Origin: a virus
Taxonomy: Duplodnaviria > Heunggongvirae > Uroviricota > Caudoviricetes
Reading direction: 5' to 3' (one strand)
Length of the DNA stretch: 27,516 nt
IMG/VR virus record: IMGVR_UViG_2563366923_000009
Shown here: one piece after another, positions 1-21,214 of the stretch
How positions within the stretch are numbered: position 1 is the first letter of the stretch
How the letters are laid out: each line of letters begins with the position of its first letter
Notes under the pieces: generated by a model
The model's input: the letters and a program-made list of their open reading frames with translations, nothing else
The model's database searches: none
Told to the model about the DNA's origin: nothing
Program-made: the position numbers and the translations under genes

Positions 1-1284
1 TTACAGACTTCTGGAAGGTTGCGCAGCTCTTACAACACGCGGTTGATCTTCCGCAGCGTCTTCCAGCGCACTTAAATCACGGTCTTTCACCTCTGGCATT
101 TTCAGCGCAGAGATTAAACCAATCACTGAATATGCCATGATCATAATGGCGATCGGATACCAGGATTCCGTCATGGTGCAGAAAATACCCGCCAGGATAG
201 GACCAAAACCGGAAGCGATAAGACCACCAATTTCTTTAGAAATAGCCATCCGGGTAAAGCGGTTTTTACAGCCGAACATTTCTGCCATGGTAATGTTTTC
301 CAGAGCAAATAATCCCAGCACCGCACAGTTATGAATCACAATCAGTGCAACCATAATGGTGCTCGGGGCATAGCTTTTATCTACAATGATAGAAAGCATT
401 GGCCATGCCAGCACAATCGCGGAGGTATTCATAATAATATACGGGATCCGGCGACCAATTTTATCGGATAACCAACCAAGGAACGGAATGGTCATAAAGC
501 CGAGAATCGAACTGATCATCAATGCATCTGTTGGAATTGCTTTGTTAAACAATAACGTCTGCACTAAATAGCCTGCAAGGAAAGTCTGAATTAACCCGGA
601 GTTACCCGCCTGACCAAAACGCAGCCCTGTTGCCAGCCAGAAGGATTTGCTCTGGAACATGCTACCAGCAGGTGCAGGTTTTGCTGTCGGTTGGTTACTG
701 TCGTTAACCTTCTCAAAGACCGGGCTTTCTTTCAGATTCATACGCAACCAGATAGCAAAGACCATCACGACAACGCTCGCCAGGAACGGTATACGCCATC
801 CCCACGCCAGCAGTTCCTCTTTACTGAGAATGAAGAACATAAAGGCCCAGATTGCCGTTGCGCTCAAGGTTCCGCAGTTAGTTCCCATAGCCACAAATGA
901 GGAGATAATTCCGCGCTTACCTTTTGGCGCATATTCCGCCAGCATCGTACCGGCACCGGAAATTTCCGCACCTGCACCCAACCCCTGAATAATACGCAAC
1001 GTCACCAGCAAGATGGGTGCAAAAACACCAATCTGTGCATAGGTCGGTAACACACCAATTAAGGTGGTACAGATCCCCATCATGGTGATGGTAATAAAGA
1101 GCACTTTTTTACGCCCTATTCTGTCGCCCATTTTGCCGAAAATAAATGCTCCGACAATACGCGCCACATAACCTGCACCGTAGGTTCCCATTGCCAGAAT
1201 TAACGCCATTGCCGTTGATGATTCAGGAAAAAATATTTCATGAAACACTAACGCTGCGCCGAGCGAATATAACTGGAAATCCAT
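1..1284 (-). CDS. ydfJ: MHS-family MFS transporter (ShiA/ProP/KgtP-like), apparently N-terminally truncated at the prophage junction
   Basis: 427-aa ORF with 11-12 hydrophobic segments and a GxxxDRxGRK loop; the N-terminus (MDFQLYSLGAALVF) begins inside what is TM1 in ShiA/ProP (WYDFxLYG), so about 25-30 N-terminal residues and the native promoter are missing. Confidence 0.85.
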   Translation of the reverse strand: MDFQLYSLGAALVFHEIFFPESSTAMALILAMGTYGAGYVARIVGAFIFGKMGDRIGRKKVLFITITMMGICTTLIGVLPTYAQIGVFAPILLVTLRIIQGLGAGAEISGAGTMLAEYAPKGKRGIISSFVAMGTNCGTLSATAIWAFMFFILSKEELLAWGWRIPFLASVVVMVFAIWLRMNLKESPVFEKVNDSNQPTAKPAPAGSMFQSKSFWLATGLRFGQAGNSGLIQTFLAGYLVQTLLFNKAIPTDALMISSILGFMTIPFLGWLSDKIGRRIPYIIMNTSAIVLAWPMLSIIVDKSYAPSTIMVALIVIHNCAVLGLFALENITMAEMFGCKNRFTRMAISKEIGGLIASGFGPILAGIFCTMTESWYPIAIMIMAYSVIGLISALKMPEVKDRDLSALEDAAEDQPRVVRAAQPSRSL

Positions 1285-1528
1285 AATTCACAGGTGTTTT
1301 TTCCCATCCTGTGGTTTCCTTGGCGTTTTCTAGGTTTTTTCAGATAGTTGCATTTTTTAAAAAGCATCCTAAGTTCGATCTCAGTGTCTATCTGGGGCCT
1401 ATTTCTGTCCCATATATGCCCCAAAAAAAACTCCCCAACAGATAAGTAGTTTTTTCATGGATTTATGCGTAAAATCAAGAACGGCTGGAAATCATTCAAT
1501 ACTCACACTATCGAAAAATTTACCAGCC

Positions 1529-1570
1529 AACCGCAGCACGTTCTTGCATAAGGCGTGTCTGCGGTTTTTC
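1529..1570 (+). terminator. Candidate intrinsic terminator (imperfect 12-bp stem with T-run) in the junction region
   Basis: aaccgcagcacg...cgtgtctgcggtt followed by tttttc. Confidence 0.35.
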
Positions 1571-2070
1571 AACTATTCAGATACATCACTCCCATCACAT
1601 TCATTCCTCCGCATCAAAGGCATATAGGCTATATCACCTTGATATTTTTCTTTTTCAGATAAAAACTGTTATCTATGTATACTTTTAAACCCAATCCGTG
1701 TAGAGTCTCTGCATAAGATAGTTTACAGTTGCCGCTTCAGCTTGCGCCATAAACCGCCTGATTTTTGCTGCCACCTGTTAGCATTCCTGTATACCTGAAA
1801 CGACAATGTTTATCTACGAACTTTAAGAACACCCAAGATAAAAATTGTCAACTATATCATATATAACACATTACTAATTCGAGGCTATATGAACAGCATA
1901 CTGATAATCACATCTCTCCTTATCATATTCAGCATTTTTAGTCATGCCCTAATAAAATTAGGGATTGGCATATCCAATAACCCAGACAAAACCGATGTAT
2001 AAGTCAACATATCCTGAATCAGACATACAATATCGCAATGAAAATCAATAATATTTTAAGGAATATCTTC

Positions 2071-2304
2071 ATGAAATCAAAAGACACCCTAAAGTGGTTC
2101 CCTGCGCAGCTTCCTGAAGTAAGAATTATCCTAGGGGATGCTGTAGTGGAAGTAGCAAAACAGGGAAGACCTATCAATACCAGAACATTGCTTGATTACA
2201 TTGAAGGAAACATAAAGAAAAAATCATGGCTGGATAACAAAGAATTATTACAAACAGCGATATCAGTTCTTAAAGACAACCAAAATTTAAATGGTAAAAT
2301 GTAA
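2071..2304 (+). CDS. ydfK: Small prophage protein of the YdfK/YnaE family (77 aa)
   Basis: ORF 2038..2304; the internal ATG at 2071 has an AAGGA Shine-Dalgarno 6 nt upstream; sequence MKSKDTLKWFPAQLPEV recalled as YdfK. Confidence 0.7.
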   Translation: MKSKDTLKWFPAQLPEVRIILGDAVVEVAKQGRPINTRTLLDYIEGNIKKKSWLDNKELLQTAISVLKDNQNLNGKM

Positions 2305-2620
2305 TATAATAAACTTACTTTTTTATCATTTTTCCACTTTAACAACATTTTGCTCCACTTTTCCACGACCAAACAACTTGAAATCTGGTTAAAATAACAC
2401 GCAACACTATTCTTCTTCCTTGAGTCCGCCCGGAACTCGAAAAACAAACCGAGTTAAAGCCATTTTTCACAAAATCGATTTTGGGTCTCACCAAAATTAC
2501 GGGGTTGCATACGCATTCGTTTATTTTCGAACGTGTACATACAAATATGCACAAAAATAATCATAATTATTTTCTGAGATGCATTATGATATGAACACCA
2601 ATTTCGTATAGAGTCTCACT

Positions 2621-3211
2621 ATGTCTCGAATTTTTGCTTACTGTCGGATATCAACGCTGGATCAGACCACCGAAAATCAACGCCGGGAAATCGAAAGTGC
2701 AGGTTTTAAAATCAAACCTCAGCAAATAATCGAAGAACACATTAGCGGCTCAGCAGCAACCAGTGAGCGTCCTGGTTTTAACCGGTTGCTTGCTCGCCTG
2801 AAATGTGGTGATCAATTGATTGTGACAAAACTGGATCGCCTTGGTTGTAATGCAATGGATATCAGGAAAACAGTGGAACAACTGACCGAAACAGGTATCA
2901 GAGTGCATTGCTTAGCATTGGGTGGCATTGACCTGACCAGTCCAACAGGAAAAATGATGATGCAAGTAATTTCAGCAGTCGCTGAATTTGAACGAGACCT
3001 TTTACTTGAACGCACTCATTCCGGGATAGTAAGAGCCCGCGGCGCAGGGAAACGTTTTGGTCGACCACCTGTGTTAAATGAAGAACAGAAACAGGTGGTA
3101 TTCGAACGAATTAAGTCAGGTGTAAGTATAAGTGCCATTGCCCGGGAATTCAAAACCTCGCGGCAAACCATTTTAAGAGCCAAAGCAAAACTTCAGACAC
3201 CTGACATATAA
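2621..3211 (+). CDS. pinQ: Serine recombinase, DNA invertase (Pin/Gin/Cin/Hin family)
   Basis: 196 aa; N-terminal catalytic motif [11 protein letters not shown] (active-site Ser), C-terminal HTH; typical invertase size. Confidence 0.9.
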
Positions 3212-3308
3212 AAAATAATCTCGGTGTGAGATGCTTTACGTCTTCCAAGCCCCCTTCCTTGCCGTAAATGGAAAGATACATCTAATTATAGAATTTATAT
3301 GTTTTACC

Positions 3309-3884
3309 CTACGGCAGTGCTGGCCATTCAATATCCTGTGCAGTTGACGTATCAACACGGTTCAGCAATACCCGATACTTTTTCCATGCTTCCAGCAACG
3401 AGATTTCTTCCTCCGTTGCAATTTCCAGATCTGCAGCATCCTGAAGCGGCGCAATATGCTCACTGGCTACCTGCATCAGGTTGTTTTTTGTTTCTTCCGC
3501 CTCCCGGATCCGGAACAGTTTTTCTGCTTCCGTATCCTTCACCCAGGCTGTGCCGTTCCACTTCTGAAACTCCCCTTCCGGCGATAACCAGGTAACATTT
3601 TCCGGTAACGGACCGAGTTCAGAAATAAATAACGCGTCGCCGGAAGCCACGTCATAAACCGTTTTACCCCGATGATCTTCAACGAGATGCCACGATGACT
3701 CATCACTGTTGAAAACAGCCACGAAGCCAGCCGGAATATCTGGCGGTGCAATATCGGTACTGTTTGCTGGCAGACCTGTATGAGGCGGAATATATGCATC
3801 ACCTTCACCAATAAATTCATTAGTTCCGGCCAGCAGATTATAAATTTTTATGGTCCGTGGTTGTTCACTCATTCTGAATGCCAT
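3309..3884 (-). CDS. tfaQ: Tail fiber assembly protein (Tfa)
   Basis: 191 aa, start overlaps the stop of the upstream stf-like ORF; Tfa-like sequence, directly 3' of the tail-fiber C-terminal domain. Confidence 0.85.
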
Positions 3885-4897
3885 TATGCAAGCCTCACAA
3901 TATAGTTAAATGCGATGTTTTTGACGGTGTTTTCCGCGTTACCAGCAGCGTTAACGGTGATGGTGTGTCCATGTGAACCAATCGCAACGGAGTGCGTATG
4001 AGCACCAATACCGACAGTATGCGCGTGTGCACCTGCAGATGCTGCTGTGCCGGACAGTGAGTGGCTATGATTACCATCTGTACTGGTATTAGCTAACCAC
4101 CCCGTAGACATACCTACTGAGCCTTGTACACCCCAGGTATTTTGACCTGAGCTTGTATAACCATATTGATAAGTATCTTTAAAAACACTGGGGTTAAATC
4201 GACGGCCATCTCTATGGCTGTGATTACCAGCTGCATTCGTGCTGCCACTTAAACTATGGGTATGCGCACCAGTGTTATTCGTGGATTTAGTGCCGTAATC
4301 AAACGACGATGTGGTTTTCGTCCCCAAATCCGTACTGGATGCGCTGGCGCTGTGGGTATGCGATTTAATGCCGTCCTGTTCCTGAGACAATACGGCCCGA
4401 CCACTGGCAGGTTTGCCCTTAATCGTCCAGCCACGCATATCCACCTCAACCGGATCGAAGGCTTCACCGGTCATGGTGTATTTGCCCTTAAGCACGGCAG
4501 AAACTGCCTGCATCTCTTCGACCTGAGCAATGGCCAGCTCTTCGTCACGCATGTTCTGCATGATGATGCGACGGCGGCGGTAAGCCGGGTCCGCCAGATT
4601 CTGCGGATCTTCATCCGGCAGGCGACGCAGGGTCATCTGCGGATTCACTTCATGCTTCGGCTTGACATATCCCGGCGTAAATTCAGAGGTGGAGCCGCCA
4701 CGGGAACGGATAACCTCACCGGAAACAATCGGCGAAACGTACAGCGCCATGTTTACCAGTCCCGGAATTTGTGAGAGATAGACTTTCTCCGTGGTGAAGG
4801 GATAGCTCTCACGGAAAAAGAGACGCAGAAACAGCGGATCAAACTTAAATTTCTGCTCATTTGCCGCCAGCAGCTGGGCGGTTGTGTACATCGACAT
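3884..4897 (-). CDS. stfQ: Chimeric ORF: lambda major capsid protein E N-terminal ~154 aa fused in frame to a side-tail-fiber C-terminal domain
   Basis: N-terminus [40 protein letters not shown]...[10 protein letters not shown] matches lambda gpE as recalled; from about nt 4435 the sequence becomes a Gly/Ser/Thr/His-rich HTHS/HSHS repeat domain ending [11 protein letters not shown], typical of Stf C-termini. Start taken at MSMYTT (4897). Confidence 0.75.
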
Positions 4898-4910
4898 AAA
4901 AAAATCCCGT

Positions 4911-4931
4911 AAAAAAAGCCGCACAGGCGGC
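4911..4931 (-). terminator. Hairpin plus T7 run between the Nu1-like gene and the E-stf start
   Basis: Minus strand gccgcctgtgcggc followed by ttttttt; sits immediately upstream of the ATG at 4897. Confidence 0.4.
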
Positions 4932-4933
4932 CT

Positions 4934-5470
4934 TTAGTGATGAAGGGTAAAGTTAAACGATGCTGTCAGTTCATCCAGCGCGGCTGCTTTGTTCATGGCT
5001 TTGATGATATCCCGTTTCAGGAAATCAACATGTCGGTTTTCCAGTTCCGGAAAACGCCGCTGCACCGACAGGGGGATCCCGTCGAGAATACTGGCAATTT
5101 CACCTGCGATCCGCGACAGCACGAAAGTACAGAATGCGGTTTCCACCACTTCAGCGGAGTCTCTGGCATTTTTCAGCTCCTGTGCGTCGGCCTGCGCACG
5201 CGTAAGTCGATGGTGTTCGTACTCAATAGTCCCTGGCTGGAGATCTGTCTCGCTGGCCCGCCGCAGTTCTTCAACTTCCCGGCGCAGCTTTTCGTTCTCA
5301 ATTTCAGCATCCCTTTCGGCATACCATCTTATAACGGCGGCAGAGTCATAAAGCACCTCATTACCCTTGCCACCGCCTCGCAGAACGGGCATTCCCTGTT
5401 CCTGCCAGTTCTGAATGGTACGGATACTCGCACCGAAAATGTCAGCCAGCTGCTTTTTGTTGACTTCCAT
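4934..5470 (-). CDS. nohQ: Terminase small subunit Nu1 homolog, C-terminally altered
   Basis: 178 aa, near-identical to lambda Nu1 (MEVNKKQLADIFGASIRTIQNWQEQGMPVLRGGGKGNEVLYDSAAV...) up to about residue 168, then a divergent tail TASFNFTLHH. Confidence 0.9.
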   Translation of the reverse strand: MEVNKKQLADIFGASIRTIQNWQEQGMPVLRGGGKGNEVLYDSAAVIRWYAERDAEIENEKLRREVEELRRASETDLQPGTIEYEHHRLTRAQADAQELKNARDSAEVVETAFCTFVLSRIAGEIASILDGIPLSVQRRFPELENRHVDFLKRDIIKAMNKAAALDELTASFNFTLHH

Positions 5471-5700
5471 TGTTCATTCCACGGCCAAAAACAGAGAAAG
5501 GAAACGACAGAGGCCCAAAAGTTCGTTTTCAGCACCTGTCGTTTCCTTTCTTTTTAGGGGGTATTTTAAATAAAAACATTAAGTTACGACGAAGAAGAAC
5601 GGAAACGCCTTAAACCGGAAAATTTTCATAAATAGCGAAAACCCGCGAGGTCGCCGCCCCGTAACCTGTCGGATCACCGGAAAGGACCCGTAAAGTGATA
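5471..5700 (-). other. Lambda-type cos site (cosB, cosN, cosQ region); cosN 12-nt cohesive end at 5648..5659
   Basis: Reverse complement of 5641..5670 reads GACAGGTTACG followed by GGGCGGCGACCT and CGCGGGTTTTCGCTATTTATGAAAATTTTCCGG, i.e. the lambda right-end/left-end junction as recalled, located directly upstream of the Nu1 start as in lambda. Confidence 0.85.
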
Positions 5701-5858
5701 ATGATTATCATCTACATATCACAACGTGCGTGGAGGCCATCAAACCACGTCAAATAATCAATTATGACGCAGGTATCGTATTAATTGATCTGCATCAACT
5801 TAACGTAAAAACAACTTCAGACAATACAAATCAGCGACACTGAATACGGGGCAACCTC

Positions 5859-6092
5859 ATGTCAACGAAGAACAGAACCCGCAGAACAACAACCCGCAAC
5901 ATCCGCTTTCCTAACCAAATGATTGAACAAATTAACATCGCTCTTGAGCAAAAAGGGTCCGGGAATTTCTCAGCCTGGGTCATTGAAGCCTGCCGCCGGA
6001 GACTGTGCTCAGAAAAAAGAGTTTCTTCTGAAGCAAACAAAGAAAAGAGTGACATTACTGAATTGCTCAGAAAACAGGTCAGACCAGATTGA
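5859..6092 (+). CDS. ynfO: Small basic prophage protein (77 aa)
   Basis: ORF with Arg/Thr-rich N-terminus; position between cos and ydfO matches Qin gene order as recalled. Confidence 0.55.
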   Translation: MSTKNRTRRTTTRNIRFPNQMIEQINIALEQKGSGNFSAWVIEACRRRLCSEKRVSSEANKEKSDITELLRKQVRPD

Positions 6093-6149
6093 AGCAATTT
6101 AGATAATCGTGCAGACTACGCCCCCTCATATCACATGGAAGGTTTATCT

Positions 6150-6509
6150 ATGGATCAGGTAGTCATTTTTAAACAAATATTTGATAAAGTTCGAAACGAT
6201 TTAAACTATCAATGGTTTTATTCTGAGCTAAAACGTCACAATGTCTCACATTACATTTACTATTTAGCCACAGAGAATGTTCATATTGTATTAAAAAATG
6301 ATAATACAGTGTTATTAAAGGGCCTAAAAAACATTGTGTCTGTCAAATTTTCAAAGGATAGGCATCTTATAGAAACGACCTCTAATAAGCTGAAATCCAG
6401 AGAGATCACATTTCAGGAATACAGAAGAAACCTTGCTAAAGCAGGAGTTTTTCGGTGGGTTACAAATATCCACGAACAAAAAAGATATTACTATACCTTT
6501 GATAATTAA
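6150..6509 (+). CDS. ydfO: DUF1398-family prophage protein
   Basis: ORF 6135..6509; the second ATG (6150) has a GGAAGG Shine-Dalgarno; recalled similarity to YdfO/YbcV-type proteins. Confidence 0.6.
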
Positions 6510-6711
6510 TTACTATTTACTGAAAGCATCCAGAAAACTACACAGATCTTACCACGCTAAACCATAACGTCCGGCTTCTCTCACTCCTGAGCCGGACTGC
6601 ATTGGTTTAATAAAAACCATCAACAATTGTGATTTAGATATTCGGAACCATTCAAATATAACAAAACCCCGTAAAAACGAGGTTTATGGATAAATTTTAT
6701 TATTGAATACA

Positions 6712-6885
6712 TCAGATTAAATTAATCTTGACATCATAGCTTTCAAGACCCGTCATTTTTTCCCGTGCGGTAAACTGAATACTGGTAACTTCTTTCCCGG
6801 TCTTTTTCTTAAGTTCAATAATTTTTTTTGTTATATATTCAGAAATATCTGCTTCTGCTTTTGTTTTTAAGTTTTCAATATTCAT
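6712..6885 (-). CDS. gnsB: GnsA/GnsB-family small protein (57 aa)
   Basis: Not in the ORF track (<60 aa); hand translation gives MNIENLKTKAEADISEYITKKIIELKKKTGKEVTSIQFTAREKMTGLESYDVKINLI, with an AGAGGAA Shine-Dalgarno upstream. Confidence 0.8.
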   Translation of the reverse strand: MNIENLKTKAEADISEYITKKIIELKKKTGKEVTSIQFTAREKMTGLESYDVKINLI

Positions 6886-7056
6886 CATTTCCTCTTTTAG
6901 TCTGTTATGACTTTCCAGTTACACAGTAAGTCGATTATATGGTGCAAACGTGTAAAAGATAAGATGAAACATCGCAATAATCAACATACGATAGTCTAAA
7001 TTTTACACAAACAGACAAAGAGAATTTTCCTGAATTATCAATGCAATAGCATCAAA

Positions 7057-7248
7057 TCAACTCAAGAGCCTTATTGCTGCTTCCAGAATTTCTTCTGAAG
7101 TAACATGTCGATCCGCGGCTACATAAATGACTTTATGATCTCCGGTCAGAGATGGAAACCCTGCGGCCATTACAGTAAGGTGTGTTTTTTCGCCATTTGG
7201 ATATTCACGCATGATGGTGTTAACTCCAGTCATCGCTGGCACTACCAC
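7057..7248 (-). CDS. ynfN: Small prophage protein, possibly the YnfN-like cold-shock-induced protein
   Basis: 63-aa ORF immediately downstream of cspI on the same strand; identity by position and recall only. Confidence 0.45.
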   Translation of the reverse strand: MVVPAMTGVNTIMREYPNGEKTHLTVMAAGFPSLTGDHKVIYVAADRHVTSEEILEAAIRLLS

Positions 7249-7557
7249 TGCTGGTTCAGAGTTAAAAAAACTATGATTTTTTTCATGATGTTACCGTAGT
7301 ATGTGAGTATCCATCGAATAGACACCAAGCAAAAAAGCTCCCGAAGGAGCCTTCATTTTCACTTTTTTAAATCCAACGACAGACGGCTGGCATTTAAGTA
7401 TTGTGAAATATTATCAAATGTAATCATCATTGATTTACAAAAGATACATTTTGCCCCGAAAGGATTCATGTCAGAAACATCAAAAGATGATGTTCTATAC
7501 TGGGAACCATGACAACACGGGCATCTAAAGTGAATATGGTTTGTAATATTGTCTACC

Positions 7558-7770
7558 TCAAAGCGCCACTACATGAACAGCGGCAGGACCTTTAGGTCCG
7601 TTCTCAATACCAAATTCAACTTCCTGATTCTCAGTTAATGTTTTGAAATCGTTGCTCTGAATTGCTGAGAAATGGACAAACACATCTTTGCTGCCATCTT
7701 TCGGCGTGATGAAACCAAAACCTTTTTCAGGGTTAAACCATTTCACTAAACCAGTCATTTTGTTAGACAT
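7558..7770 (-). CDS. cspI: Cold-shock protein (CspA family)
   Basis: 70 aa with [15 protein letters not shown] and VFVHFSAI motifs (RNP1/RNP2). Confidence 0.9.
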
Positions 7771-8132
7771 AATTATTACCTTTTGAAGAAATTAGCCCTT
7801 GGGCAGAATGGTCCGAAAAAAAATATCAGAGAGAAAAACCAACAAGGAAATCTCAAGAGGTACAAATAATAAAATTATAACAATGACTGCTTCAGATAAA
7901 TTTGTAACAAACCAGAACACCATTAACGCATGATTAACCACCCATAGCAAGGATTACTTTTGTAAAGAAAAACACAGCAATGAAAGAATAGCTTTATTTA
8001 TTAATAAAACGTGTCATTCTGATTAAGACCTTTTATCTTACCCTTAAGATTTCAGGAATTTTGGCTCATGGAAGAGTCCTTTTTATTTAAATTTTACATT
8101 CCGCGATGTAAATGTTCCGATTTAATATTACC

Positions 8133-9156
<1,024 letters not shown>

Positions 9157-9160
<4 letters not shown>

Positions 9161-9468
9161 AGATATTTATGATGAGGACGCTCGTGCTTATTGGCAGGAT
9201 TTTCAATCTTAAAGGAGTACTGATGCTGCAGATAAGACTCAACTTTTTCTGACAATTTTTCTGCTACTTCCAGGAAGACTTGCCGGACGCTCCTTCTGGC
9301 TGCTGCCTCATAAAACTCCAGCGCAGCTCCTTCAACACGGTCCATGGCGACATCCAGGTCAAAAATTTCACCGTCAAAGCGTTCTTTGTCCTGTAAGGCT
9401 ACAGTTACCGTAACTTTATTCTCAAAATTACGGACTCCTTTCACAACCAGTTCATAGTCTTGAGTCAT
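9157..9468 (-). CDS. ydfR: Small lysis-cassette-associated protein
   Basis: 103-aa ORF between the holin and the endolysin, overlapping the rrrQ start by 4 nt. Confidence 0.65.
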
Positions 9469-9472
9469 TGGA

Positions 9473-9688
9473 TTACTCTCCTCTCGCAGCCTTACGCCTG
9501 TCTTCTTTAATCTTGAAATAAAGATTTGTCAGATACGTCAGCAGGCCAAAAACCAGGCTACCCAGCACACCGATTGCAGCCCACTGTGACGGAGTTACTT
9601 TATCGAGTAACTGCAATGCCCAGAAACCAGCATTACCCGCCGATGTGCCATAGGCAACACCTGTTGTTAACTTATCCATTGATTTCAT
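9473..9688 (-). CDS. essQ: Class II holin (pinholin, S21-like) with dual-start motif
   Basis: 71 aa from [26 protein letters not shown]; two TM segments and a charged C-terminus RKAARGE; the Met-Lys-Ser-Met dual start is typical of holin/antiholin pairs. The ORF track shows a longer upstream extension that is unlikely to be used. Confidence 0.85.
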
Positions 9689-9907
9689 ATCCTCACCCCG
9701 ATGTACACGGATGGTGCAATATGTTTGAAAAGATCGGAGTCTACGGGGTAGTTTTGACAGCACACGTTGTTCTCAACGGCGCTAAAAAAACATACACATT
9801 AAAAATGTGGGTAATTATTTTGAAAGAAAGTCATATATAAAATAATAATACGAGAAATGTTTTCATATTTAGTGTACTGTATACGGCCATTTATACAGGA
9901 AAAGCCT

Positions 9908-10078
9908 ATGTCAGAACGTAAAAACTCAAAATCACGCCGTAATTATCTCGTTAAATGTTCCTGCCCAAACTGCACCCAAGAGTCAGAACACAGTTTTTCA
10001 AGAGTACAAAAAGGTGCCCTTTTGATCTGCCCTCATTGCAACAAAGTATTCCAGACAAATCTTAAAGCTGTAGCCTGA
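9908..10078 (+). CDS. ynfU: Small zinc-ribbon protein (CxxC...CxxC), 56 aa
   Basis: MSERKNSKSRRNYLVKCSCPNCTQESEHSFSRVQKGALLICPHCNKVF with two CxxC pairs; AGGAAAAG Shine-Dalgarno; the gene name is a recalled guess. Confidence 0.5.
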   Translation: MSERKNSKSRRNYLVKCSCPNCTQESEHSFSRVQKGALLICPHCNKVFQTNLKAVA

Positions 10079-10140
10079 TTGATTTTATTAGTAACAAGTA
10101 TTTTTTATATTTTAATAATATATTTAAAGCAGATAATAAA

Positions 10141-10160
10141 AAACCCGCCTGAGCGGGTTT
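10141..10160. terminator. GC hairpin flanked by A/T runs (likely bidirectional terminator)
   Basis: aaacccgcctgagcgggttt; T-rich on the minus-strand side. Confidence 0.45.
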
Positions 10161-10441
10161 GAGATTGTGGTGCTTTTTGTGGGAGTCATCCACTTACGCA
10201 CTTTGTTTTGCCATGCCAGCAGTTAGCTTCTGCTGTAAAACTATTCATGCAGCAAACCTGCACTTCACCACAATGGTTAGCATACTTTTCCTGATTAAGA
10301 TTTTGCCAAATATGCTAGCCATTGTTTCATGTATTGGACCTCCTTACTTTTTATTAAAGAGATCCAATATTCACTACTCTGTCCGTATCTCTACTCAGGC
10401 ATCAGCCTTCTTCGTTATCGTATACAGACGAGCGATGAATT

Positions 10442-10657
10442 TTAATCAGTAATGATGACATTTGCTGCTGCAGGACCTTTAGCACCACTCTCTATAGAGA
10501 AGGTAACCTTTTGACCTTCAAATAAGGTTCGATAATTATCATTCTGAATCGCAGAAAAATGCACAAACACATCTTTACTACCATCAACAGGAGAAATAAA
10601 GCCGAAACCTTTATCAGCGTTAAACCATTTTACTAAACCAGTCATTTTATTTGACAT
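10442..10657 (-). CDS. cspB: Cold-shock protein (CspA family)
   Basis: 71 aa, [23 protein letters not shown]...VFVHFSAIQ. Confidence 0.9.
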
Positions 10658-10957
10658 TCTACATTCCTTAACTTGAGCCTTTCGGCATAAATGGTTTGCA
10701 TAACAGAAACGACTTCGTACTTAATTGGAGAGACTCAAAGAAGGAATAAGTGAATAACACCTGAAATGAGAACTGCTTTAGTAAACTACTTCGTATATCG
10801 TCTGTTCTTCAAACCGACGCAATCATTAACGCATAGTTGAACATATGAAGCAATGTTTATTTTAGACATCCAGCCATCTTCAACCCCATCAAAAAACTAT
10901 AGCTTTCTTCAGGAACGTGTGTATAGTGCGCCAAGTTATCAGTATTAAGGAATTTTT

Positions 10958-11170
10958 TTGTCCCGTAAAATGACAGGAATTGTCAAAACCTTTGACGGCA
11001 AAAGCGGCAAGGGTCTTATCACCCCATCCGATGGTCGTATCGATGTCCAGCTTCATGTTTCAGCGCTCAATCTCCGCGATGCAGAAGAAATTACCACCGG
11101 ATTACGCGTGGAATTTTGCCGGATAAATGGTCTGCGTGGCCCTTCAGCTGCCAATGTTTACCTTTCATGA
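10958..11170 (+). CDS. cspF: Cold-shock-domain protein, divergent member
   Basis: 70 aa, [23 protein letters not shown]; cold-shock-domain length and spacing but degenerate RNP motifs; divergent from cspB. Confidence 0.85.
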
Positions 11171-11460
11171 GCTATATTAAAGCTTTAATTTCAGGCCCCA
11201 TCGGATCACACATGGAGAGTTTTTATGAATAACCCCGTCTGTCTTGATGACTGGTTGATTGGCTTTAAAAGCTTATGCTGTACTTTGGCCGTAATAGCTC
11301 TGCTAATAATATAATAAGCAGACTCATTGTGTTTAGGGACATTGTACTGGAAGAAAACATTTTAAACATCAGGCAAATAACCAAGTCACCAGCTAAATAA
11401 TAAGTTGACAGACATGAGTCCCGGGATGAGATTCAACATTACCATTGCCCCATTTAAAGC

Positions 11461-11490
11461 ACAAAACCCGCTCATCAGCGGGTTTTCTAC
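11461..11490. terminator. Bidirectional intrinsic terminator (candidate tR' for the late promoter and terminator of cspF)
   Basis: aaacccgctcatcagcgggttt with T-runs on both sides. Confidence 0.55.
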
Positions 11491-11530
11491 TTTTTCTTAA
11501 CGTCGGGTATACAAAGCCCATCGTTGAAAA

Positions 11531-11559
11531 AATTTTATCCATATTTTTTGAAAAATGCA
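11531..11559 (-). promoter_or_regulatory. Candidate late promoter (pR'-like) immediately downstream of the Q gene
   Basis: Minus strand TTTGCA / TTGCAT, 17-18 nt spacer, TAAAAT; lies between the Q stop (11592) and the hairpin at 11461..11482. Confidence 0.3.
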
Positions 11560-11591
11560 AACATCATGTCGCCATCTTCAGCAAAAATCAT

Positions 11592-12344
11592 TTATCTCGT
11601 CACCTTCCTCAATTGCGCTTCCGCGTATGCTTCTTCCTGCCAGCACTTTGTTACCAGTTTACCAATGACGTCCGCATACCCCTTATACCACTGATAATCG
11701 GTCAGGTCTGGTACCAGCTTCTGGACATGACGTCGTGCCAGCGTGGTCGGTAAACGACTAAACCGGTTTCCATTACAACGCCCACAAATCTTATATACCG
11801 GTACGCCATGAAACCGGGTTCTTTTTTCATCCAGAACAATCCCTTTACCCTTACACCCTCTGCACGCTGTGCTGGCTTCGCCCTTACCATGGCAATGCTG
11901 ACATAGTTCCTTCACCCATTCTTCCTTGATTACAGATTCCCCGCGTCTGTAGTGTTTCACCACTTCGCGCAATACATTATAAAATCCCGTACCTGAACAA
12001 TGCTCACAGCGAGCCTTACTTGCCGCAGACCTGGAGTAATCAGCAAAGGCAAAACTCACGAGGTAAGGAATAATCTGTAACCGGATTTCTTCACTCAATT
12101 TGTTCAATGTCGGGTTATCCAGTGCCATCGCGTAATTTAGCAGGCCTTCAATCGCAAACTGAGGGTCCTGAACACCAACTTTTGCCAGAAATAAGGCCAA
12201 CCCAAGTGGTGCTTTCGACTGCACCATCCCCTGCGCTGCCATTACATCCGTAATTGTTAAACAACCGGTGCCTGTCGCTGGAGCGTCATCGCTCAATTTT
12301 GGAGATTTTGGGGAGTAATATTTTGGTAAGGCTTCAAGGTTCAT
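11592..12344 (-). CDS. quuQ: Late-gene antiterminator Q
   Basis: About 250 aa with multiple Cys pairs (CEHCSGTG, CQHCHGKG, CRGCKGKG, CGRCNG) forming zinc-finger-like clusters; located directly upstream of the lysis and moron block; start taken at MNLEAL. Confidence 0.8.
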   Translation of the reverse strand: MNLEALPKYYSPKSPKLSDDAPATGTGCLTITDVMAAQGMVQSKAPLGLALFLAKVGVQDPQFAIEGLLNYAMALDNPTLNKLSEEIRLQIIPYLVSFAFADYSRSAASKARCEHCSGTGFYNVLREVVKHYRRGESVIKEEWVKELCQHCHGKGEASTACRGCKGKGIVLDEKRTRFHGVPVYKICGRCNGNRFSRLPTTLARRHVQKLVPDLTDYQWYKGYADVIGKLVTKCWQEEAYAEAQLRKVTR

Positions 12345-12357
12345 GCTCGTTCTCCAC

Positions 12358-13446
12358 TTACGCCAGTACGCCAATTGCCAGCGCGCGATCGATAAAACGA
12401 AATATCAGCTCCAGTTGGGAGCCATACTTATCTTCAAATGCCACTGTATCCGTATGCAGCTCGTTGTGATGCTTTCTGCACAAAGGCAACACAAAGAGAT
12501 CATGTGCTTTTGTTCCCATTCCGCCCTGCCCGTGACCAATCAGATGATGCGGATCGTCGGCTGGCATACCGCAGCAAGCACACGGCTGTGTCTTAACCCA
12601 ACGTGTGTATTTCTCCTTAACCCAGCGGCGACGTTTAGGCAGCTTCATGAAAGATTCCGGAGACTCTGGATCAACGGTGATGCTTACCACCGTCTTTTCC
12701 TGTGGTGATTTTTGTTGCTGGTGGGCGTAAGGCAACGGTGCAAGATTTTTTGTGCGTTGTTTCAATATGCTGGTGGCGGTCTGCTCTCCCGGTACGATGT
12801 CGCTTTCGCGGTACACCGAGCAGATTTTTTCCGCTGGTAATCCCAGCGAACGACGCGATACAGCCTCAGGTAGTGCATCCACCACCTGATTGCAGACCGC
12901 CCACCAGGATAATTCAGCCAAAGATAATTCCCGCTCCTGCGTACCGCTTATTGCGTGACGGATGACGTCAATCACCCATGCTGTCAGATTTTGTTGAGCA
13001 AGCAGCTCCAGTGATTCCGATGTCTGGTCACGCAGTTGGTTGTCGCAGTGCCAGCACAACACCATTGCGCCGGTACCATAACGGTGAATGACTGTTTCAG
13101 TGTGATGGTAATCGCCATTAGGCCACTGGCAGGATGTAACATGACGTAATAGCCAGTCGGACAATGCGCCAACGCCGCCAGCAGCACGAATCACCCGTTC
13201 GTTACTAAAAAACGGCAGCAATGTTTTGTCTTCCGCCAGCGGCTGGCGAACGGCAGGAACGACTCCGGATGGCAGATTACGCATGCTTTTTGGTTCCGGT
13301 TCCACCAGCACTCGAGGATTATGAAATATCTGTATGGATTCACGGCCCGGCTTAAGGACCACCAGCCCAAGCTCAGGCACCAGAACAGGTCTAAGTAATA
13401 CCCGCACGTTACCTCCAGAACCGTTGCAGGAAAGTGCGGGACGCAC
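12358..13446 (-). CDS. ydfU: DUF968-type protein with C-terminal HNH-like Cys/His motif (nin-region protein)
   Basis: C-terminus CACCGMPADDPHHLIGHGQGGMGTKAHDLFVLPLCRKHHNELH; start ambiguous (ATG at 13446 or GTG at 13407, just after the stop of the upstream 92-aa ORF). Confidence 0.7.
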   Translation of the reverse strand: MRPALSCNGSGGNVRVLLRPVLVPELGLVVLKPGRESIQIFHNPRVLVEPEPKSMRNLPSGVVPAVRQPLAEDKTLLPFFSNERVIRAAGGVGALSDWLLRHVTSCQWPNGDYHHTETVIHRYGTGAMVLCWHCDNQLRDQTSESLELLAQQNLTAWVIDVIRHAISGTQERELSLAELSWWAVCNQVVDALPEAVSRRSLGLPAEKICSVYRESDIVPGEQTATSILKQRTKNLAPLPYAHQQQKSPQEKTVVSITVDPESPESFMKLPKRRRWVKEKYTRWVKTQPCACCGMPADDPHHLIGHGQGGMGTKAHDLFVLPLCRKHHNELHTDTVAFEDKYGSQLELIFRFIDRALAIGVLA

Positions 13447-13687
13447 GTGGTGGGCGTTCGGAATAAGGCAGCCTGACAGAGATTATCCAGTGCCGATAGT
13501 CGAGACTGAGAGCTTTCTTAACCTCGAACCCGCGCCTGCGGTAAGAATGAATCAGCCATTCGGCCTGTTCTGCAGTGCATGGAGGGTGCTGGAACCATTC
13601 AGACTTGAATGCGTGAGAATACCGCCCGTGCGTGCAGGCAAGAACGGGCGAATTATCAGAATTGTAATATTTTGCGTTGCGTGCCAT
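13409..13687 (-). CDS. Hypothetical protein (92 aa), possibly a frame-shifted N-terminal part of the downstream gene
   Basis: ORF with protein-like composition ending 1 nt before a possible GTG start of ydfU. Confidence 0.35.
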   Translation of the reverse strand: MARNAKYYNSDNSPVLACTHGRYSHAFKSEWFQHPPCTAEQAEWLIHSYRRRGFEVKKALSLDYRHWIISVRLPYSERPPRASRTFLQRFWR

Positions 13688-13753
13688 CGGTTTTCTCCGG
13701 TGGCACGGTGTTACTCAGCGGGAGTTCAGCCCCGCGCAAGATTGTAGATGAGT

Positions 13754-14005
13754 TTATTCTCCTGAAAAAGCAGAAAAGCCAGCTTTTATTCCGATCTCTT
13801 TCAATGCCTGTAATGAAGTGACAAACTCACCTTCGCGCAAGATAAATCCGTCCGTGACCCGAGCATCCACAAAATTAATTAACGCAGCCCCATTCTTTCG
13901 CAAACACATAATGCGGTAATGACTAACAAGATTTCCATTTTCAACGCACACAGCATAGAGGCCATCTTCACAAAAAATTTTACGCAGTTCTTCGATGTTC
14001 ATCAT
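13754..14005 (-). CDS. rem: Small prophage protein (83 aa)
   Basis: 83-aa ORF between ydfU and hokD; length and position match Qin rem as recalled. Confidence 0.5.
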   Translation of the reverse strand: MMNIEELRKIFCEDGLYAVCVENGNLVSHYRIMCLRKNGAALINFVDARVTDGFILREGEFVTSLQALKEIGIKAGFSAFSGE

Positions 14006-14120
14006 CAGAATCCTTCCGGATAATTAGCTCTCCCCTTTAAGGGACCATCCCTCTTATCCCTGCGCGCTACTTAAGTATTTTTGATTCTATTCCGGCACCG
14101 TCCAGAACTTCAAACGCGTT

Positions 14121-14153
14121 GAAAATAAAAACAAAAACCCGCCGAAGCGGGTT
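14121..14153 (-). terminator. Intrinsic terminator of the relB-relE-hokD operon
   Basis: Minus strand aacccgcttcggcgggtt followed by tttgtttttatttt, about 70 nt downstream of hokD. Confidence 0.65.
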
Positions 14154-14221
14154 AAGTGCGGGTGCGTTGAGGATGCCTGCCACATCAGAGGTGGCGAGGG
14201 ATTTCTCCCCCGCCGGGTCTC

Positions 14222-14377
14222 TTACTCCTCAGGTTCGTAAGCTGTGAAGACAGCGACCTCCGTCTGGCCGGTTCGGATTCGTACCTCGCAGAGGTCTTTC
14301 CTCGTTACCAGTGCCGTCACTATGACGGTTAAACAGATGACGATCAGGGCGATTAACATCGCCTTTTGCTGCTTCAT
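14222..14377 (-). CDS. hokD: Hok-family membrane toxin (51 aa)
   Basis: Not in the ORF track; hand translation MKQQKAMLIALIVICLTVIVTALVTRKDLCEVRIRTGQTEVAVFTAYEPEE, the canonical Hok TM helix plus periplasmic tail. Confidence 0.85.
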   Translation of the reverse strand: MKQQKAMLIALIVICLTVIVTALVTRKDLCEVRIRTGQTEVAVFTAYEPEE

Positions 14378-14448
14378 AGCCTGCTTCTCCTGTCAACGCA
14401 AAGCAGAAGTGTCACCTTCGGTGCGAAACAGAGATGTCATGCTTTGGT

Positions 14449-14736
14449 TCAGAGAATGCGTTTGACCGCCTCGCTATATACTTCCGAGCGTTCTCTTTTC
14501 CCAACAGAAATCACGAAAACGACAACTTTCTCGTCTATAACCTGGTATACAAGGCGATAGCCTGAAGACCGGAGCTTAATCTTGTAACAATCAGGCATAC
14601 CACGGAGCTTGTTTGCTTCAATCCGGGGTGACTCAAGTACTTCAACCAGCTTCTTTTTCAACTGTTCACGTACCGTCGAGCCCAGCTTTCGCCATTCCTT
14701 TAGTGCCCGCTCGTCAAAATCCAGAAAATACGCCAT
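14449..14736 (-). CDS. relE: RelE mRNA interferase toxin
   Basis: 95 aa, MAYFLDFDERALKEWRKLG...RLVYQVIDEKVVVFVISVGKRERSEVY. Confidence 0.95.
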   Translation of the reverse strand: MAYFLDFDERALKEWRKLGSTVREQLKKKLVEVLESPRIEANKLRGMPDCYKIKLRSSGYRLVYQVIDEKVVVFVISVGKRERSEVYSEAVKRIL

Positions 14737-14975
14737 CAGAGTTCATCCAGCGTCACACGTACTGGCTTAGGATTACGAAGCCGTTCTTTCACTATCTCCA
14801 CAAGTTCAGCATCTTCATCACTCAGGAGTGTCTGTTTGAACGGCAAGCGTTCATTGTCAGCGATATACTCGAGCATGAGACGAAGCGCTTCAGAAGGAGT
14901 TACACCCATTTTTTCAAGCGCGGCGTAAGAACGCGCTTTAAGTTCATCGTCAATACGCAGGTTAATGCTACCCAT
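14736..14975 (-). CDS. relB: RelB antitoxin (RHH)
   Basis: 79 aa, MGSINLRIDDELKARSYAALEKMGVTPSEALRLMLEYIADNERLPF; stop overlaps the relE start. Confidence 0.95.
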   Translation of the reverse strand: MGSINLRIDDELKARSYAALEKMGVTPSEALRLMLEYIADNERLPFKQTLLSDEDAELVEIVKERLRNPKPVRVTLDEL

Positions 14976-14986
14976 GTCTTACACCT

Positions 14987-15012
14987 CTTGTAATTACAAA
15001 TGTCATTACAAG
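14987..15012 (-). promoter_or_regulatory. relBE operator/promoter (relO-like palindromes)
   Basis: cttgtaattacaaatgtcattacaag, two overlapping TTGTAAT/ATTACAA inverted repeats 12 nt upstream of the relB ATG. Confidence 0.7.
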
Positions 15013-15305
15013 TATCGCACTACAACATGCTTAGGGCAAGTCACGAAGGAAGTCAGAAAGTAGTCGTAAGAACGGTGATCACTGTCCGCTTTGTGCCAGG
15101 AGCAGCCATTGCTAAGTCCATCCTGTATTGTGCAGGTCAGCTCGTTTTTAAAGAGTCCGGCCATCATCTTACTGGTACAGACACCATATACTTTGTGACG
15201 GTCAGGCTACATATGCACAACTCAACTTATTCATCTATTTTTTGCTTTAGCATGTCAGTGTTGCTTTCTCGTCGGCGGGTGAGCGGTGACCTGACCTGTC
15301 GATAA
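15000..15305 (+). CDS. Questionable 101-aa ORF (ydfV-like by length and position)
   Basis: ORF-track ORF overlapping the relBE operator region; atypical composition; retained only because a 101-aa ydfV is recalled at this position in Qin. Confidence 0.25.
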   Translation: MSLQVSHYNMLRASHEGSQKVVVRTVITVRFVPGAAIAKSILYCAGQLVFKESGHHLTGTDTIYFVTVRLHMHNSTYSSIFCFSMSVLLSRRRVSGDLTCR

Positions 15306-15457
15306 AGGAACGTAACACGTTTTATGCAACACCCGCATGCGGCAGAAAATTATTGCCGAACGTTTACCCCTGTCAACAAGCTTTACTTTCTGAGGCGCGC
15401 CAGCCCGCGAGGAAAACAATCTGAACATCAAACAATTAATGACACAAGAAATACGAT

Positions 15458-15484
15458 TAAAGATTTTTTTGTGCATGCCGATAG
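15458..15484 (+). promoter_or_regulatory. Sigma-28 (FliA) class 3 flagellar promoter
   Basis: TAAAGATT, 11-nt spacer, GCCGATAG versus consensus TAAAGTTT-N11-GCCGATAA, about 25 nt upstream of flxA. Confidence 0.7.
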
Positions 15485-15507
15485 TGCTTTTTTAAAAGGA
15501 GAAATCT

Positions 15508-15840
15508 ATGTCTGTCACAATTCAGGGAAATACCTCAACCGTTATTTCAAACAACTCCGCCCCGGAAGGAACATCAGAAATAGCCAAAATCACAAGACAA
15601 ATTCAGGTGCTGACTGAAAAGCTTGGGAAAATCTCATCGGAAGAGGGGATGACGACACAGCAGAAAAAAGAAATGGCTGCATTGGTACAGAAGCAAATTG
15701 AAAGCCTCTGGGCTCAACTGGAGCAGTTGTTAAGGCAGCAGGCAGAGAAAAAGAATGAAGACGCGACAGTTCAGCCTGATAAAAAAGAAGAGAAAAAAGA
15801 CGATACAAATACCGCTGGCACCATTGATATTTACGTCTAA
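15508..15840 (+). CDS. flxA: FlxA, FliA-regulated protein
   Basis: 110 aa, MSVTIQGNTSTVISNNSAPEG...QIQVLTEKL...; coiled-coil, Lys/Glu-rich C-terminus. Confidence 0.9.
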   Translation: MSVTIQGNTSTVISNNSAPEGTSEIAKITRQIQVLTEKLGKISSEEGMTTQQKKEMAALVQKQIESLWAQLEQLLRQQAEKKNEDATVQPDKKEEKKDDTNTAGTIDIYV

Positions 15841-15855
15841 GTGACAGCCGTATTG

Positions 15856-15879
15856 TGGCCCTCATCGGGCCACTTTTCG
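15856..15879 (+). terminator. Intrinsic terminator of flxA
   Basis: gtggccctcatcgggccac followed by ttttc. Confidence 0.65.
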
Positions 15880-16127
15880 CCATCAGCCTTTTCTTTAAAG
15901 ACATATTATCTTTGTATCATTTCTGATAGTTAACATTACAAGATATAAGTAATGGACGCACTCCCAATTAGTCTATTTAAATCGCCACGAGTTTAACTGA
16001 CAACCCATGATCAATTATGAATTGCAACTATTTCTGTAGTCACTTTTGTGGGGACAGTCCACAAAACTGCCAACTTCCGCTTCTTGCTCTTAGCGGACAT
16101 TAGCATAGGCTATTTACCATAACGCCT

Positions 16128-17770: not shown

Positions 17771-17924
17771 TTAACTGGGGCTTTTCTCTATCTGCCGTTG
17801 GTGTCCATGCCCGAGGCAGATAGCCTCAAGCACCCGCAGTCATTCTACTTAACTAAGATTTCCCCGCAAACCGTTTTTGTCCAGCACAGTAAATATCCAA
17901 CTAAACCAATGGAGTTCGCTGTAT

Positions 17925-18143
17925 TTACCGCCAGTATTCAATGCACATGACCGCCATGAACACCCCTAAAAAAAGGGCATTTATATATCCAAATATTAAT
18001 ATCAAAACATCAACTTTTTCCATATACCTTGCTGTGAAGATGATGGGCATACATGATGCGAACAACCAGAACGCAACAAACAAAAACTGCAATGCGTTTT
18101 TCATTATTCCTCCTACAATCAATGTGCAATTACATTTAAACAC
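17925..18143 (-). CDS. Hypothetical small membrane protein (2 predicted TM helices)
   Basis: 72-aa ORF in an AT-rich stretch; hydrophobic segments ALQFLFVAFWLFASCMPIIF and VLILIFGYINALFLGVFMAVM; no recognisable family. Confidence 0.3.
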   Translation of the reverse strand: MFKCNCTLIVGGIMKNALQFLFVAFWLFASCMPIIFTARYMEKVDVLILIFGYINALFLGVFMAVMCIEYWR

Positions 18144-18358
18144 ACCTCAATTTGGCCGGACATATAAATATCTAAACCAGAAAAAATCACTTACATAGCG
18201 TTACAAACTCTTTAGTCTAAAGGTTCATCGTAAAACATTCCCCATACTTATCAGTCCGTTCCGCGCCAGGTAGCTCATTGCCTTATCTGGCAACCTGTAA
18301 TCAGGTTTCCGCTTTTTCAGTTGGCTGGTCGTTTAACCGACATAGTTAATCCATTAAT

Positions 18359-20404: not shown

Positions 20405-20413
20405 ATCCCCCTC

Positions 20414-21213: not shown

Positions 21214-21214
21214 T

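Follow-up and report, generated by a model that had tools for sequence, protein, structure and literature searches.

The chimeric open reading frame lies in the cryptic prophage Qin

The window (the whole 27,516-nucleotide stretch of DNA analysed) corresponds to the cryptic prophage Qin, inserted at ydfJ. Its gene order runs from inside ydfJ through ydfK, pinQ, tfaQ, a chimeric open reading frame (ORF), a Nu1 homologue, ynfO, ydfO, gnsB and cspI to rzpQ and rrrQ. Membership of Qin was assigned from this gene order, from the 5' end of ydfJ as integration site and from near-identity to the Qin prophage of Escherichia coli K-12. Megablast comparison with K-12 MG1655 gave 99.4% identity for window positions 1-4080 and 99.9% for positions 4966-16461, and outside the nohA-to-distal-stfQ interval identity to K-12 Qin lies between 99.4 and 99.9%. 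The interval from the Nu1 homologue to distal stf is the sole difference between the two. Qin integrates at the 5' end of ydfJ, is carried by 48% of 638 Escherichia and Shigella strains and is highly variable in size between strains (PMC6379469). The interval and its immediate neighbours contain the following features.

2621-3211, plus strand: pinQ, a serine DNA invertase homologue (Pfam Resolvase and HTH_7; K-12 annotation)
3309-3884, minus strand: tfaQ, tail-fibre assembly chaperone (Pfam Caudo_TAP, E=3.6e-43; annotated tfaQ in K-12 and TOK-001)
3884-4435, minus strand: Stf C-terminal tip (mEp460 Stf residues 841-1023) and stop codon (99.9% to mEp460; PDB 2xgf)
4436-4441, minus strand: deletion junction 2, GATATG microhomology (three-way alignment)
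4442-4897, minus strand: lambda E codons 1-152 (99.8% to lambda; Pfam Phage_cap_E; PDB 7vi9)
4898-4965, minus strand: last 13 nt of D (4953-4965) and the native D-E intergenic region, identical to lambda 6067-6134
4965-4966, minus strand: deletion junction 1, lambda 695 (Nu1) to lambda 6067, 13 nt before the end of D (junction alignments)
4934-5470, minus strand: nohA-like gene, lambda Nu1 codons 1-168 plus 10 out-of-frame codons ending in ELTASFNFTLHH and a stop (Pfam Phage_Nu1; junction alignment)

The chimeric ORF extends on the minus strand from an ATG at 4897 to a stop codon at 3884-3886 and encodes 337 amino acids; an alternative in-frame start upstream (GTG, 4924) would yield 346. It comprises codons 1-154 of the lambda capsid gene E followed in frame by 183 codons from the 3' end of a side-tail-fibre gene (stf). 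An earlier sequence-only reading of this DNA had proposed that approximately the first 154 codons were lambda gpE, that the frame continued into the receptor-binding domain of Stf and that a coupled tfa gene followed, and all of this was borne out. Pfam Phage_cap_E (PF03864) matched ORF residues 5-152 on profile positions 1-144 of 329 (E=6.9e-26), with a tail-fibre repeat further along the ORF. Residues 1-155 matched chain residues 1-155 of the solved lambda gpE structure (PDB 7vi9, E=7.7e-98), and residues 1-154 were 100% identical to lambda E by BLASTP. At the DNA level, window 4436-4965 corresponds to lambda 6596-6067 with 99.8% identity over 530 bp, the E' segment differing from lambda at one of 524 nt. 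Window 3200-4441, in turn, shares 99.9% identity with phage mEp460 across the 3' end of stf, tfa and pin. ORF residues 150-337 matched the tip of T4 gp37 (PDB 2xgf, chain residues 70-242, E=9.1e-55), and seven H-x-H motifs are present in the Stf part. The start of tfaQ overlaps the stf stop codon as TAATG (3884), and pinQ, convergent with tfaQ, is a member of the same retained stf-tfa-pin block.

The match to gpE does not extend to a complete capsid-protein domain (profile positions 1-144 of 329; 154 of 341 gpE residues). As to the Stf family, the C-terminal receptor-binding tip homologous to that of T4 gp37 is present together with the downstream tfa, and the N-terminal tail-attachment domain, shaft repeats and collar are absent, the Stf part beginning at residue 840 of the 1023 residues of mEp460 Stf. 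The break falls inside a conserved IPD/MRGW motif (here and below, a slash marks the joint), at the C-terminal end of the stretch that bears the Pfam Collar domain (PF07484) in related proteins; Collar is listed for relatives that keep the upstream sequence and is absent from the listing for the chimera. The earlier suggestion of an intact Stf tip plus Tfa consequently needs amendment: the region homologous to the gp37 tip and tfaQ are kept, but the collar is missing. Judged on its sequence, the chimera belongs to neither the functional capsid-protein family nor the functional tail-fibre family, the complete domains that define each being absent.

Upstream of the chimera, window 4966-5659 corresponds to lambda 695-1 (cos and Nu1 codons 1-168) at 97.4% identity. 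The nohA-like gene found here matched Pfam Phage_Nu1 over its full 164 positions (1-164/164, E=4.4e-100), and the truncation of Nu1 noted previously was upheld, with codons 1-168 retained. The out-of-frame tail of this gene crosses the last 13 nt of D and ends within the D-E spacer. A hairpin at approximately 4914-4935 is accompanied by T7 runs after the hairpin and directly before the ATG (4898-4904). The sequence-only reading had drawn attention to this hairpin and T-run; both are present, but they are not a new feature of the chimera, being base for base the D-E intergenic region of lambda itself (lambda 6080-6134). The hairpin has a 9-bp stem, and the 71-nt stretch folds with a minimum free energy of -14.5 kcal/mol and a z-score of only -1.5; a simple terminator scan did not flag it.

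Two deletions account for the structure of the interval

The sequence-only reading had supposed at least two deletions, one from the end of Nu1 to the start of E and one from mid-E to distal stf. This proved correct, and the endpoints could be mapped on lambda. Deletion 1 spans lambda 696-6066 (5,371 bp) and removes the 3' end of Nu1, A, W, B, C/Nu3 and nearly all of D; its junction shows no microhomology (CTGA/CAGC). Deletion 2 spans lambda 6597-21367 (14,771 bp) and removes E codons 155-341, the genes from FI through J, lom and approximately the first 80% of stf. Here the GATATG shared by both parents represents E codons 153-154 (D-M) and residues D839-M840 of mEp460 Stf, the context being GTG GAT ATG/GGC in E and CCT GAT ATG/CGT in Stf; the junction had been anticipated near nt 4435. 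The total loss is approximately 20.1 kb in lambda coordinates, against a prior estimate of 15-20 kb. Lambda coordinates were used because the head genes of mEp460 are not lambda-like. The parent itself had head genes of lambda type together with an stf of mEp460 type, 1023 codons in length, and with this longer stf the real loss may differ from 20.1 kb by about 1 kb.

The stf segment at window 4080-4441 represents a different stf allele from that of K-12, to which it is either unalignable or only 93.9% identical. The window and K-12 Qin have almost identical flanks, yet each keeps DNA that is absent from the other. Since this is so, and since the stf alleles differ, the interval has been exchanged by homologous recombination via its conserved flanks, in addition to undergoing deletion.

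Other relics hold further alleles of the same interval. In K-12, lambda 1-719 (up to Nu1-176) is joined to approximately Stf-707, out of frame. In the Qin prophage of TOK-001, Nu1 and A are retained up to lambda 2268 (A-519) and joined to Stf-840. The Qin prophage of 21EVA carries Nu1-168 joined to B (lambda 4241), followed by C, D and E(1-154) joined to Stf-982, while in BS74R-D Nu1-169 is joined to C (lambda 4878), after which come D and an E(1-154) segment that passes at 'TGALW' into a longer Stf. In KSC9, A-83 is joined to Stf.

The chimera is a rare but genuine allele of Qin

The exact 337-residue protein was indexed in 76 sample blocks and lay in a Qin context wherever the context was read. 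All 24 contigs read carry the protein; four places were displayed, the others being collapsed as similar, and the four have an identical Qin context. The representative of its 90% cluster stands for 52 contigs, the longest of 4.9 Mb. Database labels for the protein are 'major head protein', 'major capsid protein' and 'putative tail fiber protein'.

Beyond these contigs, neither junction was found contiguous in any complete RefSeq E. coli genome (0 of 5,426), and the junction at Stf-840 was seen at none of 76 metagenome loci holding such an Stf tip. A scan for exact matches to the 42-nt junction in one representative genome per species likewise returned no match, a result that this scope makes weakly informative. 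Among 50,697 phage records the architecture was missing, the best coverage of a 2.5-kb query being 50%; no intact phage in this set carries it. Literature searches returned nothing on an E-Stf chimera or on deletion hot spots of the kind described below.

It could be argued that the ORF is a true tail-fibre gene whose N-terminal domain is capsid-like, or else an artefact of assembly. The single continuous ORF would fit such an explanation, and nothing else does. The N-terminal part and the spacer upstream of it are lambda DNA at 99.8% identity, the tail of D included, no phage record shows such an architecture, and the same junction recurs across many independent assemblies, with contigs reaching 4.9 Mb. 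We regard this explanation as extremely improbable. The chimera is a real, lineage-restricted allele of Qin.

The ORF is very probably a scar of prophage decay

We consider it very probable that the ORF is a deletion scar in cryptic Qin, and the chimera itself is most likely a non-structural pseudogene. A lambda-like late region was reduced by two deletions, one from Nu1-168 to 13 nt before the end of D and one from E-154 to Stf-840. The second was joined at the 6-nt microhomology GATATG, suggesting RecA-independent joining at short homology, i.e. slippage or end joining. In support of decay, each piece is nearly identical to its parent (99.8% for lambda E, 99.9% for mEp460 stf-tfa-pin and 97.4% for lambda cos-Nu1), Qin of the K-12 type continues on either side, the allele is rare and its architecture is missing from the phage records, and other Qin- and DLP12-like relics hold different deletion alleles of the same interval.

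The reading frame across the junction does not call for selection. In the lambda late region, GATAT lies in codon phase 0 (GAT-ATN) at 26 of its 31 coding occurrences. Because of this bias, two GATAT sites joined by microhomology will usually be in frame, and selection is not needed to obtain an in-frame fusion. On the strength of this count, selection was discounted as the reason for the fusions being in frame.

By analogy with the HK97 fold, the 154 of 341 gpE residues that are retained would represent approximately the N-arm, E-loop and spine helix, so that the chimera would be unable to form a capsid. Since it possesses no Stf attachment domain, shaft or collar, it presumably cannot be mounted on a tail either. 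The ORF shares its strand with the lysis and late genes of Qin, and any expression would probably result from read-through of the Qin late operon. A promoter search of 3200-6000 returned a single sigma-70-like site, fewer than in shuffled sequences and on the opposite strand, and none for the chimera. The block of stf tip, tfaQ and pinQ is best seen as leftover DNA, available to infecting lambdoid phages through homologous recombination.

Several observations nevertheless count against a scar. The ORF is intact, is identical across at least 52 contigs and keeps its coupling to tfaQ, and no relic allele seen has lost the stf-tip/tfa/pin block. Furthermore, the endpoints are not random: E-154, Nu1-168/169 and Stf-840 turn up again in independent relics, joined there to other partners, a recurrence that would not be expected from plain random slippage.

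The first of these observations could instead point to an exapted product. Expressed with TfaQ, the fusion, or a tip fragment initiated at Met155 (the Stf Met840 codon), would fold into a soluble trimeric receptor-binding tip that shuts out related phages by sitting on the outer-membrane receptor; in a second version, the truncated gpE would interfere with the assembly of capsids when lambda-like phages infect the cell. An intact, in-frame ORF coupled to tfaQ and identical in 52 or more contigs is what either version would lead one to expect, and the region homologous to the gp37 tip keeps its seven HxH motifs. In addition, there are many independent in-frame fusions of other genes to the Stf tip in E. 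coli, and truncations of E cluster at residues 136-157, just past the presumed spine helix. However, the in-frame status is accounted for by the codon phase of GATAT, the allele is rare, no dedicated promoter was found, collar and shaft are absent, and sister alleles, such as that of K-12, are out of frame. We therefore judge exaptation to be quite improbable and favour a decay scar, whose recurrent endpoints are considered below.

Deletion endpoints recur with different partners

Comparison of relic junctions revealed a small number of endpoints that are joined to several partners each. They are given here with the partners observed.

Stf-840 (CCTGATA/TGCGTGG): E-154 (window), E-182 (P0002, L012), A-519 (TOK-001), J (P0008, L013) and a ydaS-like gene (P0009, L014)
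E-154 (lambda 6594-6596; 6594-6599 if the doubtful scaffold L098 is counted): Stf-840, Stf-982, Stf 'TGALW', T (L097), I (L099) and E-299 (P0165, protein level only)
Stf-707 (GGGTA/ACCGCG): Nu1-176 (K-12, L055), Nu1-169 (L083), Z (L054, sharing the 8-nt TAACCGCG), J (L053) and a ClpP-type protease (P0049, known at the protein level)
Stf 'TGALW': E-154, J (L024) and another partner (L025)
Nu1-168/169: D, C, B, Stf-707 and Stf-722

Some of the recurrent junctions are thus known at the protein level only. L098, a metagenome scaffold in which E-154/155 is joined to a GGDEF/HD-GYP gene, may be misassembled and was excluded from the counts. In a metagenome sample chosen only by the presence of an Stf tip, seven relic junctions to non-fibre DNA were counted, six of them at two Stf sites. 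By hand tally, about 18 of 21 junctions known at the DNA level cross a T/A step, while TA makes up 3.0% of dinucleotides in the lambda late region. The endpoints appear to recur far more often than chance, and nearly always at T/A steps, although the clustering may include an effect of sampling, which was partly protein-based and drew on protein lists biased towards short proteins.

Shared ancestry as the sole cause of this reuse is weakened in three respects. Alleles with one endpoint in common each keep DNA that is missing from the other. The E region of the E-154/I allele (L099) is about 7% diverged from lambda, placing one E-154 event in a separate lineage. Finally, the window departs from 21EVA at 6 of 524 E' sites, a divergence similar to that between their flanks.

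Some of the reuse may have arisen secondarily, by slippage over short distances next to a joint already present. Conversion of E-182/Stf-840 into E-154/Stf-840 takes an 84-bp deletion between GATATG copies, and conversion of Nu1-176/Stf-707 into Nu1-169/Stf-707 a 22-bp ATA-ATA deletion. Such slippage leaves without explanation the long-range reuse, in which the partners are kilobases away, and the reuse in the diverged lineage.

A bolder proposal is that lambdoid prophage decay in E. coli proceeds not by random deletion but by recurrent joining of a few fragile or recombinogenic T/A-step sites, either among themselves or with partners that share microhomology; we hold this to be unlikely. The candidate set of hot sites may comprise Nu1 codon 168/169, A codon 83, E codon 154, Stf codons ~707 and 840, and Stf 'TGALW'.

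No invertase-type site is found at the hot sites

The origin of the junctions, as distinct from the fate of the product, might lie with an enzyme that favours certain sites (PinQ at quasi-sites, a different recombinase or a nuclease) or with a replication-arrest site. In favour of such an origin are the use of E-154, Stf-840, Stf-707 and Nu1-168/169 with different partners, the excess of T/A steps and the E-154 event in the diverged E lineage, for which shared ancestry is unlikely. Additionally, pinQ adjoins many, but not all, of the relics for which downstream DNA was seen.

To set against this, Pin-mediated joining found no counterpart in the sequence. The AAACCnnGGTTT core and its half-sites were scanned in the window, and none lay at the junction; no pix- or gix-like core was present at any hot site. 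The chimera is not part of an invertible segment of the Pin, Gin, Cin or Min type, there being no site with the AAACCnnGGTTT core in or beside the chimera and no matching inverted repeats. A degenerate half-site upstream of pinQ was the sole crossover-like match. Inverted and direct repeats were sought around stf, tfa and pin in both the window and mEp460, with none at the junction or hot sites, and the hot-site sequences have no inverted or direct copy near pinQ. In e14, moreover, the pix site lies about 50 codons upstream of the position equivalent to Stf-840. Chi sites showed no consistent fit to the hot sites. To our knowledge, neither do the ends or targets of insertion sequences, the gyrase and topoisomerase consensus, restriction sites, the lambda att core, or DnaA and IHF boxes fit them consistently. 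Together with the short-range slippage and the skew of the sampling towards short proteins noted above, these findings lead us to doubt that a site-preferring process produced the junctions, and slippage or end joining at short homology is still the origin we prefer.

Significance of the chimera and of the interval

The chimera is an ordinary deletion allele of Qin, already sequenced but mislabelled. Taken alone it matters little, adding one further lineage-specific deletion allele to a well-known cryptic prophage. Its use lies in the correction of annotation (the 'major capsid protein' label) and as a precise marker of a Qin sub-lineage. Of broader interest is the Nu1-to-stf interval of Qin- and DLP12-type relics, which constitutes a natural series of deletion junctions, and in which the codon phase of a microhomology motif offers a simple cause for the in-frame bias of fusions.

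Should the recurrence of endpoints reflect a specific mechanism, it would bear on the 'grounding' of prophages and on the frequent survival of the stf tip with tfa. If decay through hot sites were true, it would imply an unrecognised site-preferring process of breakage or recombination, of which in-frame fusions keeping the stf tip and tfa would be a population-wide by-product; the E-154/Stf-840 joint of the window would then be two hot sites joined.

Comparison with known systems

The closest counterpart is stfQ/nohA of K-12 MG1655 (b1547/b1548). Like the window, it belongs to Qin at ydfJ and is flanked by ydfK, pinQ and tfaQ on one side and by ynfO, ydfO, gnsB and cspI on the other, and each is a remnant that retains, after a Nu1 homologue, an stf that is truncated and a tfa that is intact. 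K-12, however, has a single junction and no E sequence, whereas in the window there are two, with a 524-bp D'/E' insert between them, and Stf starts at codon 840.

Among lambdoid Stf/Tfa systems (Ur-lambda being another), the nearest is mEp460, whose last 183 Stf residues (of 1023) and tfa are 99.9% identical in DNA to the window. The first 839 residues of that protein, consisting of the domain beginning MAVKISGVL, an Ala/Ser-rich shaft, fibre repeats and the collar, are replaced in the chimera by gpE 1-154.

The histidines of the T4 gp37 needle domain coordinate iron, and lambda Tfa can substitute for T4 gp38. The chimera resembles the gp37 tip (PDB 2xgf; served by chaperones of the gp38/Tfa type) in its sequence homology over chain residues 70-242 and in its H-x-H repeats, and differs in having no collar, no shaft and a foreign N-terminal domain.

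Replication arrest offers a further parallel. Bierne, Ehrlich and Michel reportedly found deletions in E. coli that are anchored at replication-arrest sites and joined by short homology. Such deletions resemble the pattern at E-154, Stf-707 and Stf-840 (one end constant, the partner changing and 2-8 nt of microhomology at the joint, or 0-8 nt over the reuse pattern as a whole) by way of analogy only, and we know of no arrest site or bound protein at these three positions.

Like the chimera, the stfE pseudogene of e14 is a C-terminal fibre fragment that lies with tfa and a pin gene in a cryptic prophage of K-12. The e14 fragment is bounded by a pix crossover site (TTCTCCCAAACCAACGTTT), the inverted partner of which lies within stfP; the window junction has no such site and is instead a deletion joint to a capsid gene. 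The chimera is thus of the same kind as K-12 stfQ/nohA, e14 stfE and other remnants described as 'grounded prophages', from which it is distinguished by its breakpoints and by the capsid-gene fragment that it carries.

Recurrent deletion endpoints and Stf-tip fusions

A small number of sites were found to be reused as deletion endpoints among lambdoid relics, each with differing partners: Nu1-168/169, A-83, E-154, Stf-707, Stf 'TGALW' and Stf-840 (gene and codon at the endpoint or, for 'TGALW', the motif). This recurrence was drawn from the two junctions of the window (4436-4441 and 4965/4966) together with loci read in other genomes and metagenomes (L002, L003, L012-L015, L024, L025, L036, L053-L055, L083, L097 and L099). 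Nearly all of the recurrent relic junctions cross at a T|A step, TA accounting for only 3% of dinucleotides.

The Stf C-terminus carried by the window's chimera was also present in many further in-frame fusions in E. coli databases (proteins P0003, P0006-P0012, P0019, P0045, P0049, P0054, P0062, P0093, P0111 and P0113), the N-termini of which derive from late or early phage genes. These partners comprise the terminase small and large subunits, portal, a ClpP-type protease, tape measure, J and a ydaS-like HTH protein. Database labels for the fusions vary between tail fibre, terminase and capsid protein.

Two metagenomic loci warrant caution. In L098 (an ENA metagenome scaffold; positions 1419-3730), the reverse strand of a GGDEF/response-regulator/HD-GYP gene is joined to lambda E codons 1-155; this join is probably a metagenome misassembly involving lambda DNA. 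In L084, the translation upstream of the Stf tip reads ...KQKTAYEISACLVGSEMCIRDS, a stretch that looks like a sequencing-adapter remnant in a metagenome contig.

Invertase-like sites in the window

Approximately 170 bp upstream of the start of pinQ, a serine DNA invertase homologue, the sequence ACTCGAAAAACAAACCGAGTTAAAGCC (2435-2461, +) resembles a gix/pix crossover site in its left half and centre; the right half is degenerate. It contains AAACCGAG, which matches the Mu gix core, and its CTCGAAAA..AACC portion is similar to pixL of e14. An invertible segment, since lost, may once have lain 5' of pinQ and left this site behind. Apart from this site, the window has only CCCCGTAAAAACGAGGTTTATGGATA (6667-6692, between ydfO and gnsB) at no more than one mismatch from the invertase core AAACCnnGGTTT, a match that may be due to chance.

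Comparison with K-12 Qin

Alignment of window positions 4080-4441 with K-12 Qin (L006, 7082-7446) revealed flanks that are 99.2-99.9% identical, whereas within the stf tip 4081-4249 could not be aligned and 4245-4441 was only 93.9% identical. Because near-identical flanks enclose a divergent tip, homologous recombination must have exchanged the noh-stf interval among relics.

The Qin of the window differs from that of K-12 in four further features:

16277-17590 (-), an extra transposase gene (HTH and rve_3 domains), absent from K-12 Qin
22620-23317 (+), IS1 (InsA/InsB), absent from K-12 Qin
23406-25877 (+), an ORF of 823 aa, free of interruptions and bearing an Rv2179c-like exonuclease domain; in its place in K-12, the IS2-disrupted pseudogene ydfE
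26221-27516 (+), a long open integrase frame extending past the window end; in its place in K-12, the pseudogene intQ
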